A stretch of 64,000 nucleotides of DNA from Burkholderiales bacterium (lineage in GTDB: Bacteria; Patescibacteriota; Minisyncoccia; Phycocordibacterales; UBA9973): NCBI GenBank assembly GCA_023701005.1, contig JAMPXW010000001.1:35769-99768 (forward strand), in the 5' to 3' direction. Position 1 is the stretch's first letter. Each line of letters begins with the position of its first letter. A program made the translations under genes and the position numbers. A model generated the notes under the pieces. The model was not told the DNA's origin. It did no database searches and saw only the letters and a list, made by a program, of their open reading frames with translations. Of the stretch, positions 7,086-49,983 are shown one piece after another.

Positions 7086-7580
7086 TTAAATTTCATTTTT
7101 TAATTCTATTTCATTATTATCTGCGAAGTTTGTCGCTATCTCATCTGCTCTGTCGTTCCATTTGTCTCCACTATGCCCTTCTACATACTGCCATTTAATC
7201 TGAAAATTCTTAGTAAGTTCATAAAGTTCTACCCATAATTCTTTATTTAAAACTGGTTTTTTGGCAGCATTTCTCCAATTATTTTTTTGCCAATTAAAAA
7301 TCCATTCAGTGATACCATGTATAACATATTTAGAATCAGCAAATATTTCTATCTCCTTTTCCGCTAGGTCTTGCCTAGCGGAGATATATTTTAACGCTTC
7401 TATCGGAGCCATGAGCTCCATTTGATTGTTTGTGGCATGAGCTGAAAATCCTCCCAATTCTTTTATTTTATTATCAAACATAATAATAGTTGCCCAACCA
7501 GCTTTACCTGGATTCCCTCTAGCAGCACCATCTGTATAAATAATAATTTTATTCTTTCCCATATTTCTATAGTATATCAA
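7086..7580 (-). CDS. rnhA: ribonuclease HI
   Basis: YTDGAARGNPG, TNNQMEL and a C-terminal HSGDKWNDRADEIA motif. Confidence 0.85.
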   Translation of the reverse strand: MIYYRNMGKNKIIIYTDGAARGNPGKAGWATIIMFDNKIKELGGFSAHATNNQMELMAPIEALKYISARQDLAEKEIEIFADSKYVIHGITEWIFNWQKNNWRNAAKKPVLNKELWVELYELTKNFQIKWQYVEGHSGDKWNDRADEIATNFADNNEIELKNEI

Positions 7581-30553: not shown

Positions 30554-31675
30554 ATGCAAATAAAAATAAACAAATTACCAAAAAGTGAGGTTGAAATCGA
30601 AGGAGAATTAAGTGCCGATGTGTTTGAAACGTATTTCAATAAAGCTTTAAAAGCTATAGGTGAGCATGTAGAGATAGACGGTTTTCGTAAAGGCAAAATA
30701 CCTGAAAATGTCTTACTCTCAAAGGTTCCAGAAGCTCAAATACTAGGAGAAATGGCAGAAATGGCTTTGAGTGAACACTATCCAAAAATATTAGAAGATG
30801 AAAAAATAGACGCTATATCACGTCCAGAAATTTCTATTACCAAACTTGCTCGCAACAATCCATTAGAATTCAAAATTAAGACTGCAGTTATGCCAGAAAT
30901 GACTCTCCCAAATTACAAAGATATAGCAAAGAAAGTCCTTTCAGATATAAAAGAAGAAGACAAAAAAGTAGAACCAACAGAAAAAGAAGTTGAAGACACG
31001 ATAATGGATATCAGAAAATCCCGTGCTCCAAAAATCCACATGGCGGCCGCGTCCTCCGAAGCTTTAGCGAAGGAGGAAAAAACTTCCCATGAACATAAAG
31101 AAGGAGAAGCTTGCGATCATGAAGACCATAAAGAAAAAGAAATAAAAGAAGAAGAACTCCCTCCTTTCAATGATGAATTCGTGCAGGCTCTCGGACCCTT
31201 CAAAGATATAACTGATTTTAAAGATAAATTAAAAGAAAATATAAAATTAGAAAAAGAAAATCAATTAAAAGAAAAAGCTAGATTAAAAATCGTTGAAAAA
31301 ATAATTGATGATACGAAAGTTGAACTTCCAGATATCTTAGTAGAAGTAGAATTGGATAAAATTTTATATAGAATGGAATCAGACATAACTCAAATGGGAT
31401 TAAAATTTGAAGATTATCTAAAACATTTGAATAAAACAGTAGAAGAAATAAGGAAAGAATTTAGAAATGATGCAGAAAAGAAAGCTAAGCTCGCTCTTGT
31501 TTTAAACAAGATAGCTGTAAATGAAAAAATAGAAGCTGATAAAGAACAAGTGGCCAAAGAAGTAGCGATGATCTTAGAACATTACAAAGATGCAGATCCT
31601 GAAAGAGCTCAAATGCATGCAGAAAATGTTTTAGTCAACGAAAAAGTTTTCCAATTCTTAGAAGAACAAAAATAA
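30554..31675 (+). CDS. tig: trigger factor, short form apparently lacking the PPIase domain
   Basis: N-terminal ribosome-binding domain (GFRKGKIP) and C-terminal arm with LPPFNDEFVQALGPF. An acidic/His-rich ~60-aa segment replaces the PPIase domain. Confidence 0.8.
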   Translation: MQIKINKLPKSEVEIEGELSADVFETYFNKALKAIGEHVEIDGFRKGKIPENVLLSKVPEAQILGEMAEMALSEHYPKILEDEKIDAISRPEISITKLARNNPLEFKIKTAVMPEMTLPNYKDIAKKVLSDIKEEDKKVEPTEKEVEDTIMDIRKSRAPKIHMAAASSEALAKEEKTSHEHKEGEACDHEDHKEKEIKEEELPPFNDEFVQALGPFKDITDFKDKLKENIKLEKENQLKEKARLKIVEKIIDDTKVELPDILVEVELDKILYRMESDITQMGLKFEDYLKHLNKTVEEIRKEFRNDAEKKAKLALVLNKIAVNEKIEADKEQVAKEVAMILEHYKDADPERAQMHAENVLVNEKVFQFLEEQK

Positions 31676-31685
31676 ATACACAATC

Positions 31686-31720
31686 AAAAACCTCCCGAGG
31701 ATAACCCTCGGGAGGTTTTT
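31686..31720. terminator. hairpin AACCTCCCGAGG-ATAAC-CCTCGGGAGGTT flanked by A5/T5; serves as tig terminator and as left REP-like hairpin of the transposase
   Basis: Seen directly. The same CCCGAGGATAACCCTCGGG palindrome recurs at 32379..32399. Confidence 0.6.
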
Positions 31721-32402
31721 ATGTTATGATTACTACATGGAACGAAAAACAAAACTCGAGGTAGAGGAATTCTATCATATATATAATCGTGGTGTAGAAA
31801 AACGAAAAATATTTCAAGTTTATTCTGATTACAAAAGATTCCTGGCTTTACTTTATATCGCAAACAATGACCAACCATTACACATAAAAGATTTCGGTTA
31901 TATGTCCCTCGAAGAAATCTTTAAACAAGATCGTGGGGAACAATTAGTAGCAATAGGAGCATATTGCCTAATGCCGAATCATTTTCATTTATTACTTACT
32001 CCCCTTGTAGATGGAGGGATATCAAAATTTATGTTAAAACTTCAAACCGGGTATTCTATGTATTTTAATAAAAAAAATGATAGAGTTGGTCCATTATTTC
32101 AAGGAACTTTCAAATCAAAACACGCAACCGATGATTTATATTTAAAATATATTTATGCATATATTCACCTCAATCCAGCAAAACTAAAAAATCCAAATTG
32201 GAAAACTCAGTCAAGAAGTTTTTTAACTGAACTTGAAAAATTTGTTGCTGAATATCCATATTCAAGTTTACAAGAATACATTTCTTTAAATTATAAGATA
32301 ATAAATCCAGCACCATTCCCCGTTGAAGGGAAAGACATAATAGATTACGACACTATAATAAACGATTTTTCTGAATTTCCCGAGGATAACCCTCGGGAGA
32401 TT
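31686..32402 (+). mobile_element. REP-associated tyrosine transposase (IS200/IS605-like Y1 HuH) unit flanked by identical palindromic hairpins
   Basis: A TnpA-like CDS lies between two copies of CCCGAGGATAACCCTCGGG. Confidence 0.5.
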
Positions 32403-32405
32403 TAA
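31737..32405 (+). CDS. IS200-like/RAYT Y1 transposase
   Basis: HuH motif MPNHFHLL, GPLFQGTF, catalytic Tyr region YIYAYIHLNPAK and RAYT-like YPYSSLQEY. The C-terminal codons overlap the right hairpin. Confidence 0.65.
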   Translation: MERKTKLEVEEFYHIYNRGVEKRKIFQVYSDYKRFLALLYIANNDQPLHIKDFGYMSLEEIFKQDRGEQLVAIGAYCLMPNHFHLLLTPLVDGGISKFMLKLQTGYSMYFNKKNDRVGPLFQGTFKSKHATDDLYLKYIYAYIHLNPAKLKNPNWKTQSRSFLTELEKFVAEYPYSSLQEYISLNYKIINPAPFPVEGKDIIDYDTIINDFSEFPEDNPREI

Positions 32406-32410
32406 GTCAT

Positions 32411-32791
32411 TTAAAACAAAGGTAAAATAAAATGATAATAGATCAAGGAAATCAAGAACCAATACAAAGAAAATCGTAAACAAATTAAACCCATGAAATT
32501 AAATTTTTCATGAGAATAATCCCACAGCCTAACTTTTTTTATCTTTAAATCTAGATAACCGGTCAAAAATTCAACCAATGTTGGAACTATAAAAATCAAA
32601 ATTAATCTATAAATTAATGCTATCTCTAAAAAACTAATAATAGCCAAGAATGTTCCTATTAAGGCATACATCTGAGCATCAATTAATTTAGGTTTTATTA
32701 ATTTTTTATGTTCGATAGATCTATAAACAAACTCCAAAATAAAACCGACAAATAAACCAATAAAAAAATTCAAAACAATTTGTAAAAACAT
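32411..32791 (-). CDS. hypothetical membrane protein
   Basis: 126-aa ORF with three or four TM helices. Confidence 0.4.
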   Translation of the reverse strand: MFLQIVLNFFIGLFVGFILEFVYRSIEHKKLIKPKLIDAQMYALIGTFLAIISFLEIALIYRLILIFIVPTLVEFLTGYLDLKIKKVRLWDYSHEKFNFMGLICLRFSLYWFLISLIYYHFILPLF

Positions 32792-36960: not shown

Positions 36961-37530
36961 TTAATATTTTCTTATTACTGCCTTTACGACAGCATTAATA
37001 TTCAAAGAATGTTCAGGATAAATATTGTTATATTTTTTATTAGCTGGCTGTAGCCACACCTTATTCCCTTCTTTTCTAAAATACTTCATTGTAAATTCTC
37101 CATCAACTTCTGCTATCACTATCTGCATATCTTTAGCTGTATTCGTTTTTTCCACCAAAACCATATCACCTTTTTCTATGTGTGCATCTATCATAGAGTC
37201 TCCATCAACTTCAAGCATGTAAGTCGATGCTTTATTTTTTACAAGTAAATCGTCTAAGTTTACAGAATCCGCCAACTCTTCTTCGACTGTTGCAGGCAAG
37301 CCTGCAGTCACAAAACCAAGCATCGGAATTTCTCCAAAAGATTGAGAAGGGATTAATCTCCCTAAATGATCTTTAGCTACCAATCCTTCATCGATAAGTT
37401 TGTTAACAATTTTAAAAACTGCATTCTTGGATTTAAAACTAAAAATATCCATCATCTCCCTGTATGTTGGCATTCTTTTGTTTTTGGAATAAAAATCTTC
37501 TATTTTTGTCTGGTAAATATTTTTAGCCAT
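36961..37530 (-). CDS. lexA: LexA repressor
   Basis: N-terminal wHTH and C-terminal S24 peptidase with LGFVTAGLPA (cleavage site), GDSM (Ser) and a Lys dyad region. Confidence 0.85.
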   Translation of the reverse strand: MAKNIYQTKIEDFYSKNKRMPTYREMMDIFSFKSKNAVFKIVNKLIDEGLVAKDHLGRLIPSQSFGEIPMLGFVTAGLPATVEEELADSVNLDDLLVKNKASTYMLEVDGDSMIDAHIEKGDMVLVEKTNTAKDMQIVIAEVDGEFTMKYFRKEGNKVWLQPANKKYNNIYPEHSLNINAVVKAVIRKY

Positions 37531-37819: not shown

Positions 37820-37835
37820 GTGAACGAGCGTTCAC
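37820..37835. promoter_or_regulatory. Cheo-type LexA/SOS box GTGAACGAGCGTTCAC (GAAC-N4-GTTC)
   Basis: Perfect palindrome upstream of the small-ORF-lexA operon. Confidence 0.55.
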
Positions 37836-37848
37836 TGTCAAATACTTC

Positions 37849-37880
37849 CCTGTGGATAACCAGACAAGGGCGGCCCTTTT
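37849..37880. repeat. GC-rich dispersed repeat, copy A: CTGTGGATAACC-AGAC-AAGGGCGGCCCTT (contains perfect DnaA-box TTATCCACA on the minus strand)
   Basis: Seen directly. Related copies lie at 42011 and 62049. Confidence 0.5.
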
Positions 37881-39077: not shown

Positions 39078-40649
39078 TTACGAAGTAACTTTTGGCCTGT
39101 ATTGTATCGCTTCGAGAATATGGTTTGAATTTATTTCTAAAGAATTTTCTAAGTCTGCAATAGTGCGGGCTATTTTTATTACTCTATGATACGCACGAGC
39201 AGAAAGTGCGAGGCGTTCAGCGCTATCATCCAAAAGCTGTCTTGTCTTTTCATCTAGCTTCACCATATTTGATAAATCTTTCACATTCATTTCACTGTTC
39301 GTTTTTATATCTCTTTTAAAATTTTCAAATCTTTTTTTCTGAACTTCTCGTGCATTAGTCACTCTATATTTTATCCTATCACTCGTCTCTCCGTTTCCTA
39401 TTTCTCCAAGTTTTTTATAATCTACATTTCCTACAGAAACCCAAAGATCAATACGATCCATAATAGGGCCAGACAATTTTCTTTTATATCTATCCAAATC
39501 CGAAGGTCTACAAATACAAACCCTTTGTTTGCTAGTAGCATTGCCACAAGGACAAGGGTTCATGGCAGCAACCAAAATAAAATTTGATGGGAAAGTGGCT
39601 GTGCCCTTAGCGCGAGAAATAGAAACGATATTATCTTCCAATGGCTGTCGCAAAGATTCGATGACTTTCTTTTCAAACTCTGGAAATTCATCCAAAAAGA
39701 GAACACCCTTGTGTGCCAAGGTCACTTCACCCGGCTTAGGATATGTTCCTCCACCTATAATAGATACATAAGAAGAAGTGTGATGAGGTGATCTAAATGG
39801 AGGAGAAGAAATGAGTTCCCCTCTTGTTGCTCCTGCAACAGAATGTATGCCCGTGATTTCCAAAACTTCATCAAGTTTTAAATCTGGAAGTAGCTGAGAG
39901 AAAGCCCTGGCGAGCATTGTCTTCCCTGTACCTGGTGGTCCATACATTGCGATATTATGTCCACCAGCTGCTGCTATTTCCAATCCTCTCTTTGCTCCCT
40001 CTTGCCCTTTCACATCTGAAAAATCAGAACCTCTACTTTCTTTTTTATAAACAATCTGTGTTTTTGATTGAACTAAAATCAATCCATCACCAAGGGCCGT
40101 CCTTTGGGAACCCTTTAAGGACGGCCCTTTCTTTTCAGAAATATGACCAACAACTTCTTCCAAAGTCTCTGCTCCAAAAATCTTTATACCTTCCACCAAG
40201 GCTGCTTCGACAGCATTTTCTTTGGGCAAATAAACTTCTTCATATCCAGCTTTTTTAGCTTCCATGACCAATGGCAAGGCTCCTCTTATTCTTCTCAATG
40301 TACCATCTAGCCCAAGCTCGCCCAAGAAAATTTTCTTTTCTGAATTAAATTTCAAATCTTCACAAGCCAACATGTATGCGAGGGCAATAGCTAAATCAAA
40401 AAACGGCCCCTCTTTTTTAAGATCAGCCGGTGAAAGCGAAACTATTATTTTTTGATTTTTGGCTTTCGGAGACTTAAAACCAGAATTTTTTATAGCAGAG
40501 CTCACCCTATCTTTAGATTCATCTACAGCTTTATCAGGAAGTCCAACAATGTTAAAAGTATGCAAGCCCTTCGACAAATCTACTTCGATCGTTACGATCT
40601 GACCCGAGAGGAGATTTACTTGTGCCGAATAAACTCGTGCAAAGCTCAT
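39078..40649 (-). CDS. YifB/ComM-family Mg-chelatase-like AAA+ ATPase
   Basis: N-terminal Lon-like domain, Walker A GPPGTGKTMLA and the ChlI-family C-terminus. Confidence 0.85.
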   Translation of the reverse strand: MSFARVYSAQVNLLSGQIVTIEVDLSKGLHTFNIVGLPDKAVDESKDRVSSAIKNSGFKSPKAKNQKIIVSLSPADLKKEGPFFDLAIALAYMLACEDLKFNSEKKIFLGELGLDGTLRRIRGALPLVMEAKKAGYEEVYLPKENAVEAALVEGIKIFGAETLEEVVGHISEKKGPSLKGSQRTALGDGLILVQSKTQIVYKKESRGSDFSDVKGQEGAKRGLEIAAAGGHNIAMYGPPGTGKTMLARAFSQLLPDLKLDEVLEITGIHSVAGATRGELISSPPFRSPHHTSSYVSIIGGGTYPKPGEVTLAHKGVLFLDEFPEFEKKVIESLRQPLEDNIVSISRAKGTATFPSNFILVAAMNPCPCGNATSKQRVCICRPSDLDRYKRKLSGPIMDRIDLWVSVGNVDYKKLGEIGNGETSDRIKYRVTNAREVQKKRFENFKRDIKTNSEMNVKDLSNMVKLDEKTRQLLDDSAERLALSARAYHRVIKIARTIADLENSLEINSNHILEAIQYRPKVTS

Positions 40650-42010: not shown

Positions 42011-42043
42011 CTGTGGATAACCGGGTAAGGGCCGCCCTTCAAC
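42011..42043. repeat. GC-rich dispersed repeat, copy B: CTGTGGATAACCGGGTAAGGGCCGCCCTTCAAC
   Basis: Seen directly in the 56-bp gap between two co-oriented genes. Confidence 0.5.
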
Positions 42044-48781: not shown

Positions 48782-48822
48782 AAAAATAGCCCGCACTAAC
48801 ATGCGGGCTAAATATTTCACTA
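48782..48822. repeat. 41-bp hairpin repeat, copy 1: AAAAATAGCCCGCACTAACATGCGGGCTAAATATTTCACTA (terminator-like)
   Basis: Near-identical to 49429..49469. Confidence 0.5.
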
Positions 48823-49347
48823 CTTATTGTGTTTCTTTAATAATTCTCCAGCCAATCTTAAATTAATATCATTAATTATCCGATCAAGATATTCCGGCAA
48901 AATAGGAGTTTCGTAATCTGAAGAATTCATGTGAATTCTAAAATTAACTTCAAAATTCCTACACCTTTCAACAAGAGAAATTGGCCCAGCTGAAACAAAA
49001 AGATGCAAAGGTTTTTCTGGGTCCTCTTTATCTTTGTTTTCTAAAGACAAGGTCACACTCTTGCTAGAAATTAATCTTGCATATGGAGTTTTGAGAGTTT
49101 CCTCTGACATATCCATTGTCGATAGAAAATGTTTCTCTCCAAAAGAACCAGACGATCCAAATCCTATTTCTGTCTCCATATTTCCATCTTCGATAGAAAC
49201 ATTCGTGACTTTAAAAAATGGATAATTAGATTCTTTTTTAAGGGAATTAAAAACATCATAAACAGCAAAGAAAAGTTTTTCTCCTAAAATAGAATCCACC
49301 TTCAAAACTGATAAAAATTTATCAGAAAATATGATTCTCATAAACAC
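48820..49347 (-). CDS. hypothetical 175-aa protein bracketed by the two hairpin repeats
   Basis: ORF with no recognisable motif. Confidence 0.4.
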   Translation of the reverse strand: MFMRIIFSDKFLSVLKVDSILGEKLFFAVYDVFNSLKKESNYPFFKVTNVSIEDGNMETEIGFGSSGSFGEKHFLSTMDMSEETLKTPYARLISSKSVTLSLENKDKEDPEKPLHLFVSAGPISLVERCRNFEVNFRIHMNSSDYETPILPEYLDRIINDINLRLAGELLKKHNK

Positions 49348-49428
49348 CTCATTTTATTTTGAAAAGAATTTTTTTATTTCAAATAAACATTACCACCGAT
49401 TTTGGTACCAGTCAATGCAGGTTTTTTA

Positions 49429-49469
49429 TAAAAATAGCCCGCACTAACATGCGGGCTAAATACTTCACT
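49429..49469. repeat. 41-bp hairpin repeat, copy 2 (one mismatch versus copy 1)
   Basis: Seen directly. Confidence 0.5.
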
Positions 49470-49983
49470 AAACATTAAATTTAAAATAAATTGCCACCTT
49501 TTTGGCTTCGGCGGCCAGATCTCCTTTCTGTTGTACAATAAATTTACAAAACCAATCCAAATATTCTAGACTCCTAAAGCCTAACCCCCAATTTACACTC
49601 TCCAACAGAGAAAATTTTTGTTTAGAAATATGATACATCATATCTCTCGTCATTATAACTTTGCCTTCTTCTAGAAGAGAAGAAACAAAATTAGAAAACC
49701 TAGAAAACGATTCTTTATACTCTCCTGCTTTCATTTCCAGAGATCCAATTGTTTTCAACACATGATTTCTCTGTTCTTGAAAAGAAAGAATATCATCATC
49801 TAGAGAGAAACCAAAAATCTCAAAAAAAATTTTCTTTTCTTTCTCTAGTTCTTCTTTTTCTTGTACTTTTTTCTCACTTTCTCTTTTAGCTTTTAATATT
49901 GGATTAATTCTCCAAAAAAAATAAAAAGCAAAAAGTATTATACCGACAGTAACAACAACGGAAATAACATTCGAGAGTTCCAT
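49468..49983 (-). CDS. hypothetical N-terminally anchored protein
   Basis: 171-aa ORF with TM VISVVVTVGIILFAFYFFW. Confidence 0.4.
   Translation of the reverse strand: MELSNVISVVVTVGIILFAFYFFWRINPILKAKRESEKKVQEKEELEKEKKIFFEIFGFSLDDDILSFQEQRNHVLKTIGSLEMKAGEYKESFSRFSNFVSSLLEEGKVIMTRDMMYHISKQKFSLLESVNWGLGFRSLEYLDWFCKFIVQQKGDLAAEAKKVAIYFKFNV

Follow-up and report, generated by a model that had tools for sequence, protein, structure and literature searches.

A RAYT-like Y1 HuH nuclease gene and its private hairpin pair downstream of tig in a Patescibacteria genome

The 64-kb window of contig JAMPXW010000001.1, the whole stretch of DNA analyzed here, contains a gene for a Y1 HuH nuclease (the Y1 gene) that lies between tig, which encodes trigger factor, and a convergent gene, and that is bracketed by two copies of one hairpin (Table 1). 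Both copies hold the same exact 19-mer with the loop ATAAC on the plus strand, which makes them a direct repeat, and the identity between them extends over 22 nt. The left palindrome ends 16 nt before the Y1 ATG; the right hairpin lies within the final nine Y1 codons, where it encodes FPEDNPRE. No further copy of the 19-nt core with up to three mismatches occurs in the 64 kb, and the expectation from 100 shuffles is 0. A preliminary description of this DNA had placed identical palindromes around the coding sequence (CDS), at coordinates that the exact 19-mers shift by 2–3 nt, and the motifs it had listed, MPNHFHLL, GPLFQGTF, YIYAYIHLNPAK and YPYSSLQEY, are all found in the Y1 open reading frame (ORF). 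The window has a GC content of 33%, and close homologues of its proteins (including P0001 and P0241) are all from Patescibacteria/Nomurabacteria. On the basis of gene content, GC content and these homologues, the name that NCBI gives to the source metagenome-assembled genome (MAG), "Burkholderiales bacterium", is probably wrong as taxonomy.

The Pfam search that had been proposed as a check finds Y1_Tnp (PF01797) in residues 57–144 of the protein at 33.6 bits, above the cutoff of 23, and no other Pfam domain, neither a helix-turn-helix (HTH) nor DnaA_C. The best NCBIfam match is REP_Tyr_transpos, the equivalog for transposases associated with repetitive extragenic palindromes (REPs), known as REP-associated tyrosine transposases (RAYTs), at 40.1 bits and under its cutoff of 80. 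H82, H84, Y142, H144, N146 and the YPYSS motif are invariant in an alignment of 28 Y1 homologues (A1), and H82, H84, Y142 and N146 are at least 90% conserved in an alignment of 85 sequences that reaches down to 34% identity (A3). Profile comparisons with hhalign and hmmsearch pair H82/H84 with H59/H61 of RayT from Escherichia coli, Y142 with Y115, and N146 with N119, the residues of the RayT active site (PMC3479197). The catalytic Tyr, on whose presence the preliminary description had made its assignment depend, is thus accounted for by Y142. Three Tyr signatures have been distinguished, namely Y---Q in class 1 (IS200-type), Y---NP in class 2 (RAYT-like) and Y----Q in class 3, with a HuH-to-Tyr spacing of ∼58–67 aa in class 2 (Quentin et al. 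2018, PMC6006769). The context Y142-I-H-L-N146-P147, with 60 aa from H82 to Y142, fits class 2; the class-1 signature is not matched, as N146 rather than Gln occupies position +4.

Structural prediction points in the same direction. An AlphaFold model built from A3 has a predicted local distance difference test score (pLDDT) of 92.8 and was used in place of a model from the shallow alignment A1, which reached a pLDDT of 48 and was discarded. With the A3 model, Foldseek returns 4ER8, the complex of E. coli TnpA_REP with a REP hairpin, as the top PDB match (E = 1.8e-5, target-normalised TM 0.70), followed by TnpA structures of IS608, ISDra2 and IS200 at a probability of 1.00. The C-terminal ∼12 residues, which form the tail encoded by the hairpin, have low pLDDT and are unconserved. 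Searches of PDB sequences with single-sequence phmmer and with the A1 profile gave no Y1 match, and the diverse A3 profile alone reached 4ER8 and ISDra2, weakly. A PHROGs search returned nothing, and the one PADLOC match (E = 0.008) was judged to be noise. Taken together, the alignments and the model indicate that the gene product is a Y1 HuH enzyme with an apparently intact HuH motif and catalytic Tyr, and that it is closest to RAYT. The initial assignment to a RAYT/IS200-type TnpA holds in its first half, through Pfam, the alignments and 4ER8; the IS200 half fits worse, given Y---NP instead of Y---Q.

The pairing of gene and hairpins extends across the family. We collected ∼90 homologous Y1 genes with their flanks, removed duplicate loci, and compared the upstream 120 nt with the stop-codon region of each gene, with ordinary ORFs of at least 150 aa from the same loci serving as controls. 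Of the 75 Y1 genes compared, from Patescibacteria (41–85% identity), 59 have a word of 12 nt or more in common between their flanks and 50 have one of 15 nt or more; the median shared word is 20 nt. Non-cognate upstream/downstream pairs reach 12 nt in 90 of 5,542 cases (1.6%) and 15 nt in 29 of 5,542 (median 7 nt), and for ordinary neighboring genes the corresponding counts are 10/330 (3%) and 2/330 (median 8 nt). The shared words are hairpins with stems of 6–10 bp; the loop measures 3 nt in 30 cases and 5 nt in 13. Strictly matched pairs are present at 45 of 79 Y1 genes. Among these 45, A, G and G occupy stem positions -4, -3 and -2 from the loop in 33, 31 and 41 pairs, respectively, the upstream hairpin ends a median of 24 nt before the ATG, and the downstream hairpin starts inside the CDS in 23 pairs and at or past the stop codon in 22; the two members are direct repeats in 22 pairs and inverted in 23.

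Stem sequences are equal within a pair and different between loci, with the AGG/CCT core next to the loop being kept. Where paralogues share a contig, every one is flanked by a pair of its own (L025, L036, L055 and L023; L100 and L101), and many related genomes contain two or more diverged Y1 paralogues (44–79% identity) that lie 1.5–8 kb apart with hairpin pairs of their own; the window's genome may likewise hold further Y1 paralogues outside the 64 kb. At the syntenic locus L002, both copies differ jointly from those of the window, with CCCGAGG-ATAAC replaced by CCCCGAGGG-TTC/GAA. The codon phase of the CCCGAGG core is 1 in the window and L004, 2 in L002 and 3 in L101. Because relatives have the hairpin in all three reading frames or past the stop codon, what is kept is the nucleic-acid structure and not the peptide. 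These comparisons identify the flanking hairpins as a specific, family-wide partner of the Y1 gene, matched flanks being seen in 59/75 genes against 3% of controls.

The hairpin is rare. An exact scan for the 19-mer in 185,579 species, with one genome each, gave 10 stretches. It adjoins a Y1 gene in three Patescibacteria genomes, as pairs 684–685 bp apart in two of them and as a single upstream copy in the third, whose stored locus ends inside the Y1 gene. The near-complete related genome nzgw486 has three copies over its contigs, the third being solitary on another contig, so that the hairpin is neither confined to the present locus, as the preliminary description had allowed, nor numerous. 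In 20-kb loci, a locus-specific hairpin is almost always represented by just the two flanking copies, with occasional extras 0.04–3.3 kb from the gene; from these few copies per locus and genome it follows that the hairpin is not a high-copy REP family. Single copies of the 19-mer are also present in four Collinsella genomes (L087, L093, L094 and L096), one Clostridia MAG (L091) and one Saccharibacteria MAG (L088), and no Y1 gene was found near these matches in the fetched flanks. The four Collinsella matches exceed the chance expectation.

In nzgw486, the solitary copy is an in-frame part of a gene for an RlmI-like S-adenosylmethionine (SAM) methyltransferase and falls in a hot spot of hypervariable insertions, where the DNA reads ...ATT TCCCGAGGGTTATCCTCGGGA AGA.... 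The orthologue in L099 has a one-base variant of the hairpin at the same place, and that in L098 (88% identical) has unrelated AT-rich codons there without a hairpin. The copy in one orthologue and its absence from the other argue for at least one event in which the cognate hairpin was copied to a distant location. The Nomurabacteria-type RlmI-like methyltransferases have several such in-frame hypervariable hot spots and measure 291–354 aa at 70–80% identity; other inserts in them, such as PWGNSLKGS and SPLEEYP..., may also be derived from palindromes. The window itself holds a hairpin of the family type in frame in an RNase HI-like ORF, with a tcttg/caaga loop that is also seen in Y1-flanking hairpins of L033, L074 and L086. 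Presumably this region corresponds to a ∼10-aa insert relative to E. coli RNase HI.

The presence or absence of the locus in relatives, a comparison that the preliminary description had called for, shows both states. The order NusA–H+-PPase–...–tig–Y1 is kept in four other genomes, with identities to the window for Y1 and tig, respectively, of 85% and 82% in L092 (nzgw486), 83% and 81% in L089, 82% and 73% in L090, and 70% and 66% in L002. Y1 divergence is in step with that of tig, Y1 being no more diverged, a pattern as for co-inheritance if the protein identities are taken as the guide. In L102, L103 and L104, which have the same synteny and a tig identity of 73–77%, tig is followed directly by clpP, and no Y1 remnant, hairpin or box was found between the two genes. 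Filled and empty genomes interleave on a rough, weak neighbor-joining tree of tig, and the most distant genome is filled. We read this pattern as ancestral presence of Y1 with clean losses, the alternative being repeated gain. The window has one Y1 copy and no second in the 64 kb.

The two hairpin copies at the tig locus differ in their surroundings. The folding energies as DNA are -18 kcal/mol for the left copy (z = -7) and -10 kcal/mol for the right one (z = -2.6). The left copy is terminator-like whichever strand is read; the right copy, which has no T-run, is not. The longer stem and the predicted fold of the left copy are in line with the earlier proposal that it terminates tig. A separate hairpin follows tig in L092, so the use of the Y1 hairpin as tig terminator is taken to be a trait of the window lineage, and perhaps also of L090. 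GTAG or GTGG is absent from the feet of the hairpins on either strand, the feet being AAAAACCT/AGGTTTTT and TGAATTT/AGATTTA. In Rfam, the terminator-like hairpin matches no family at threshold, and only sub-threshold matches of the His_leader type were returned. Integration of the unit into an older tig terminator, with duplication of the hairpin, was considered and rejected, since the A-tract and the T-tract both lie beside the left copy rather than being split between the copies; the empty tig–clpP sites, moreover, have no such hairpin. The promoter-like box before the Y1 ATG has a counterpart in the family, with TAnnWT at -14 to -10 in 51/85 homologues. A TGnTAnnAT-type box ∼6 nt before the ATG, without a Shine-Dalgarno sequence, also precedes clpP in L102 and L103, and given this equal geometry we rejected the box as a Y1-specific feature. 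The recurrence of this arrangement suggests that leaderless transcripts are widespread in these genomes and that the box geometry is general.

A further repeat is dispersed over the window. The sequence CTGTGGATAACC, the reverse complement of the DnaA-box consensus TTATCCACA, is present in four perfect copies, all on the minus strand; as Table 1 shows, boxes are joined to an AAGGG/CCCTT hairpin in three intergenic modules, and one box stands alone. The loop of this hairpin is flipped in one module copy. The preliminary description had taken the 8-mer GGATAACC, common to the Y1 hairpins and these repeats, as a hint of a REP/REPIN-like system. Its four copies, against 1.1 expected and with 3 of 100 shuffles reaching four, are weak alone, and the link was rejected, as the common letters come from different motifs. 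What survives of the hint is that box-plus-hairpin modules flank Y1 genes of the family in other genomes: TTATNCACA is ∼12-fold enriched within 150 nt of Y1 genes at other loci (21 in 27 kb vs 41 in 633 kb), and it abuts cognate hairpins in ∼10 related loci. One module, that at 37851, has a syntenic counterpart in L092 with a conserved box and a different hairpin. Close to this module, GTGAACGAGCGTTCAC at 37820–37835 is a GAAC-N4-GTTC palindrome (Cheo-type SOS box) upstream of a Peptidase_S24 (LexA-like) gene (36961..37530, minus strand), and it is kept in L092.

Table 1. Coordinates of the features discussed, in the window or in the numbering of the related locus named
Feature	Sequence	Coordinates	Strand	Details
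tig (trigger factor)	window	30554-31675		stop codon 11 nt before left hairpin
Left hairpin, AAAAACCTCCCGAGG-ATAAC-CCTCGGGAGGTTTTT	window	31686-31720		35 nt; perfect 15+5+15 palindrome
Left hairpin core, CCCGAGG-ATAAC-CCTCGGG	window	31694-31712		AAAAACCT/AGGTTTTT lengthen core to 15-bp stem
Exact 19-mer CCCGAGGATAACCCTCGGG, two copies	window	31694-31712, 32379-32397		loop ATAAC on plus strand in both
Identity between left and right copies	window	31693-31714, 32378-32399		22 nt
Extended -10-like box, TGTTATGAT	window	31722-31730	+	6 nt before Y1 ATG; without Shine-Dalgarno sequence
Y1 CDS	window	31737-32405	+	222 aa; class-2 Y1 HuH nuclease (RAYT-like)
H82/H84 codons	window	31980-31988		
Y142 codon	window	32160-32162		
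N146 codon	window	32172-32174		
YPYSS codons	window	~32253-32267		
Right hairpin, TCCCGAGG-ATAAC-CCTCGGGAG	window	32378-32399		also written TCCCGAGG-ATAAC-CCTCGGGA(G)
Convergent gene	window	32411..32791	-	stop codon 32411-32413; right hairpin 11 nt beyond that stop
Box TGTGGATAA + 6 nt + hairpin AAGGG-ccg/cgg-CCCTT	window	37851-37878, 42012-42039, 62049-62076		same strand; intergenic
Inverted doublet of AAGGG/CCCTT hairpin	window	40092-40129		
Lone box	window	58649-58657		without hairpin
41-nt module, two identical copies	window	48782-48822, 49430-49470		stop codon, TAGCCCGCA-ctaaca-TGCGGGCTA hairpin, minus-strand T-run
Family-type hairpin, TCCGCTAGG-tcttg-CCTAGCGGA	window	7360-7382		in frame in RNase HI-like ORF 7086..7580 (-); encodes SARQDLAE
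Y1 paralogues	L100	1747-2415, 10001-10666		
Y1 paralogues	L101	4070-4702, 10001-10696		
Y1 paralogues	L023, L025, L036, L055, L061			
RlmI-like SAM methyltransferase	L095	4173-5111		alignment A2; also in L098 and L099

On these grounds we consider, with a probability of roughly 0.6, that the unit at 31686–32399 is a sedentary RAYT-like "REPtron" with private hairpins that belongs to a large Patescibacteria-specific subfamily of class-2 Y1 HuH nucleases. By analogy with E. coli TnpA_REP and IS608 TnpA, the enzyme would bind its cognate hairpin as folded single-stranded DNA and would cut and rejoin the adjacent DNA. Its activity, or gene conversion, would hold the two copies identical within a lineage, pair and protein would co-diverge between lineages, and a hairpin copy would occasionally be seeded elsewhere. 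In the window's genome, the left copy would have been lengthened into an intrinsic terminator of tig, which may shield the promoter-like box between hairpin and ATG from tig read-through. Transcription of Y1 is predicted to start from TGTTATGAT and to yield a leaderless mRNA, with the right copy forming the 3' end of both CDS and message. Whole-unit excision of the IS608 type is disfavored as the conserved function, because direct and inverted pairs are equally frequent and excision needs both ends on one strand.

Several points weigh against this interpretation. The copy counts for the source genome come from the 64-kb window, and matched flanks are not seen in ∼20% of the homologues. The near-equal mix of direct and inverted pairs is odd both for REPtrons, whose pairs are inverted, and for IS200/IS605 ends, which lie on the same strand, and it blurs the strand logic. 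The clean empty tig–clpP sites in three related genomes fit a mobile unit as well, and binding and cutting of the hairpin by the protein are proposed from sequence and model. Finally, identical hairpins also surround a gene that is not Y1, which shows that duplicated terminators arise here by other routes. An identical 41-nt module follows two adjacent minus-strand genes and brackets a 175-aa non-Y1 ORF at a 648-bp spacing; it looks like a duplicated terminator. This duplication is a caution on any argument from identical hairpins around a gene.

The last point bears directly on the idea that the Y1 hairpins are ordinary terminators or RNA 3'-end structures that were duplicated by chance and have no functional tie to the protein. 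The terminator-like left copy and the duplicated module at 48782–49470 speak for it, but the right copy is in the CDS and has no T-run, matched flanks occur at 79% of Y1 genes against 3% of neighboring genes, the AGG/CCT stem core is kept family-wide, the same hairpin is found inside the methyltransferase ORF of a related genome, and no Rfam family is reached at threshold; we regard this explanation as highly improbable. A better case can be made for an autonomous IS200-like insertion sequence (IS), in which the ∼715-bp hairpin–gene–hairpin segment would move whole via a single-stranded intermediate, with the same-strand hairpins as its ends. The length of the unit is near that of IS200, the window's hairpins are direct like IS200/IS605 ends, the tig–clpP site is polymorphic, with L102, L103 and L104 cleanly empty and filled and empty sites interleaved on the tig tree, and remoter homologues occur in many different contexts. 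Such an element is nonetheless unlikely here, as the protein carries Y---NP (class 2) and not Y---Q, its top structural match is TnpA_REP, tnpB is absent, the gene is single in 64 kb, within-genome paralogues at 44–79% identity are not recent copies, Y1 divergence follows that of tig at the same locus, and half of the family's pairs are inverted, which would put the "ends" on opposite strands.

The dispersed modules raise the question of a canonical RAYT with a genome-wide REP/REPIN population, in which the REPs would be the TGTGGATAA-N6-AAGGG-ccg-CCCTT modules (37851, 42012 and 62049, with the doublet at 40092). These modules recur between genes on one strand, the AGG/CCT build of their hairpin is the same as that of the Y1 hairpins, TTATNCACA is enriched at Y1 genes of other loci and abuts the cognate hairpins there, and the paralogue P0016 has a CAAGGG-gaa-CCCTTG hairpin. 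The module hairpin is, however, unlike that of the window's Y1 gene, and Y1 genes throughout the family go with the hairpins of their own flanks. Only three or four modules occur in the 64 kb, the one at 37851 is syntenic with that of L092 and so was inherited and not freshly inserted, no perfect box is present in the window's Y1 flanks, and many boxes are without a hairpin and may be ordinary DnaA boxes. A canonical system of this kind is accordingly given little credence.

Against known systems, the sedentary RAYT-like unit is closest to the REPtrons in organization (PMC3333891, PMC6006769), and the RAYT groups of Bertels et al. 2017 and class 2 of Quentin et al. 2018 (PMC6006769) served for comparison. 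Like E. coli RayT, the protein has the Y1 HuH fold with HuH, Tyr and Asn in the same register and a C-terminal extension with a W/Y-P-F/Y-S-S/T motif; it differs in its length of ∼220 aa vs 165, in its equivalog score of 40 vs 80, and in belonging to a family confined to Patescibacteria. Shared with REPtrons are cognate flanking palindromes of a type proper to each gene and, probably, mostly vertical inheritance with loss possible. Where copies can be counted, there are two or three hairpins per genome (two in the 64 kb, three in nzgw486), whereas REPtrons go with dispersed REPs and a GT[AG]G foot, both of which are lacking here; the stems are perfect over 6–10 bp, contain an AGG/CCT core and enclose loops of 3 or 5 nt, pairs are direct as often as inverted, and the downstream copy often reaches into the end of the CDS. 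The label "REP-associated" given in the preliminary description is therefore not supported in its canonical sense, and the system is a low-copy variant of a known RAYT-type kind, with no dispersed REP population, GT[AG]G tag or equivalog score. Low-copy flanking repeats are known for some RAYT groups (PMC5581495), and REP-like elements decorate REPtrons in species without REP families (De Nocera et al. 2013, PMC3733652). The TIRYT/TIRtrons described in the latter work are likewise RAYT-like genes that, in genomes without a REP family, are flanked by low-copy repeats of their own, but their flanks are terminal inverted repeats, often GGGGWSAS, whereas each flank here is itself a palindrome, and the C-terminal HTH or DnaA_C of TIRYTs was not found by Pfam in this protein.

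IS200, IS608 and ISDra2 (class 1) share with the window's unit the Y1 HuH superfamily, subterminal hairpins at either end on one strand and a length of ∼0.7 kb, and the left-end hairpin of IS200 is also a transcription terminator. The unit differs from them in its Y---NP signature, in having no near-identical copies in the 64 kb and no tnpB, in its probably vertical inheritance, and in that half of the family's pairs are inverted. Rickettsia palindromic elements are in-frame palindromes inside genes, and the family-type hairpins within conserved genes (the methyltransferases of L095 and L099, and RNase HI at 7360–7382) resemble them in this; the hairpins here are far shorter, at ∼21–23 nt, and a tie to a Y1 enzyme is suggested only by their sequence identity with a Y1-flanking hairpin.

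The Y1 family is large: the word index gives >7,900 matches, and clustering at 50% identity (E ≤ 1e-30) gives 888 clusters. In the literature searched, we found no report that links RAYT or Y1 HuH systems with Patescibacteria, which go unmentioned in the PMC6006769 survey; the Patescibacteria Y1 genomes are outside the sampling of published complete-genome surveys.

A wider picture can be offered tentatively, as a possibility that we hold to be well short of even odds: Patescibacteria may carry a large undescribed subfamily of domesticated Y1 HuH nucleases, with a private pair for each paralogue, freely flipping loops, sometimes a TTATCCACA tag, and occasional copies that are intergenic or in frame (methyltransferase, RNase HI), in which case the box-plus-hairpin modules of the window would be the population of a second paralogue. 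If this is true, a system of two to few copies in a ∼1 Mb genome would be the simplest natural setting in which to study the host role of RAYT-type enzymes.

RAYTs, domesticated transposases of wide occurrence, have no known benefit to the host, and most work on them has dealt with genomes that hold REPs by the hundred. In the present case, an enzyme of this class occurs with a private hairpin pair only, and protein identities suggest that it diverges no faster than trigger factor. It is found as ∼900 clusters at 50% identity in the streamlined genomes of Patescibacteria. Together, these points suggest that the partnership of enzyme and hairpin is upheld without a repeat population. For biochemistry, the system offers a minimal substrate set, one 21-nt hairpin. 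For annotation, genes labeled "transposase" in genomes of the Candidate Phyla Radiation (CPR) should be treated with caution, as they are probably resident and stable, and insertion may account for short GC hairpins in CPR proteins.

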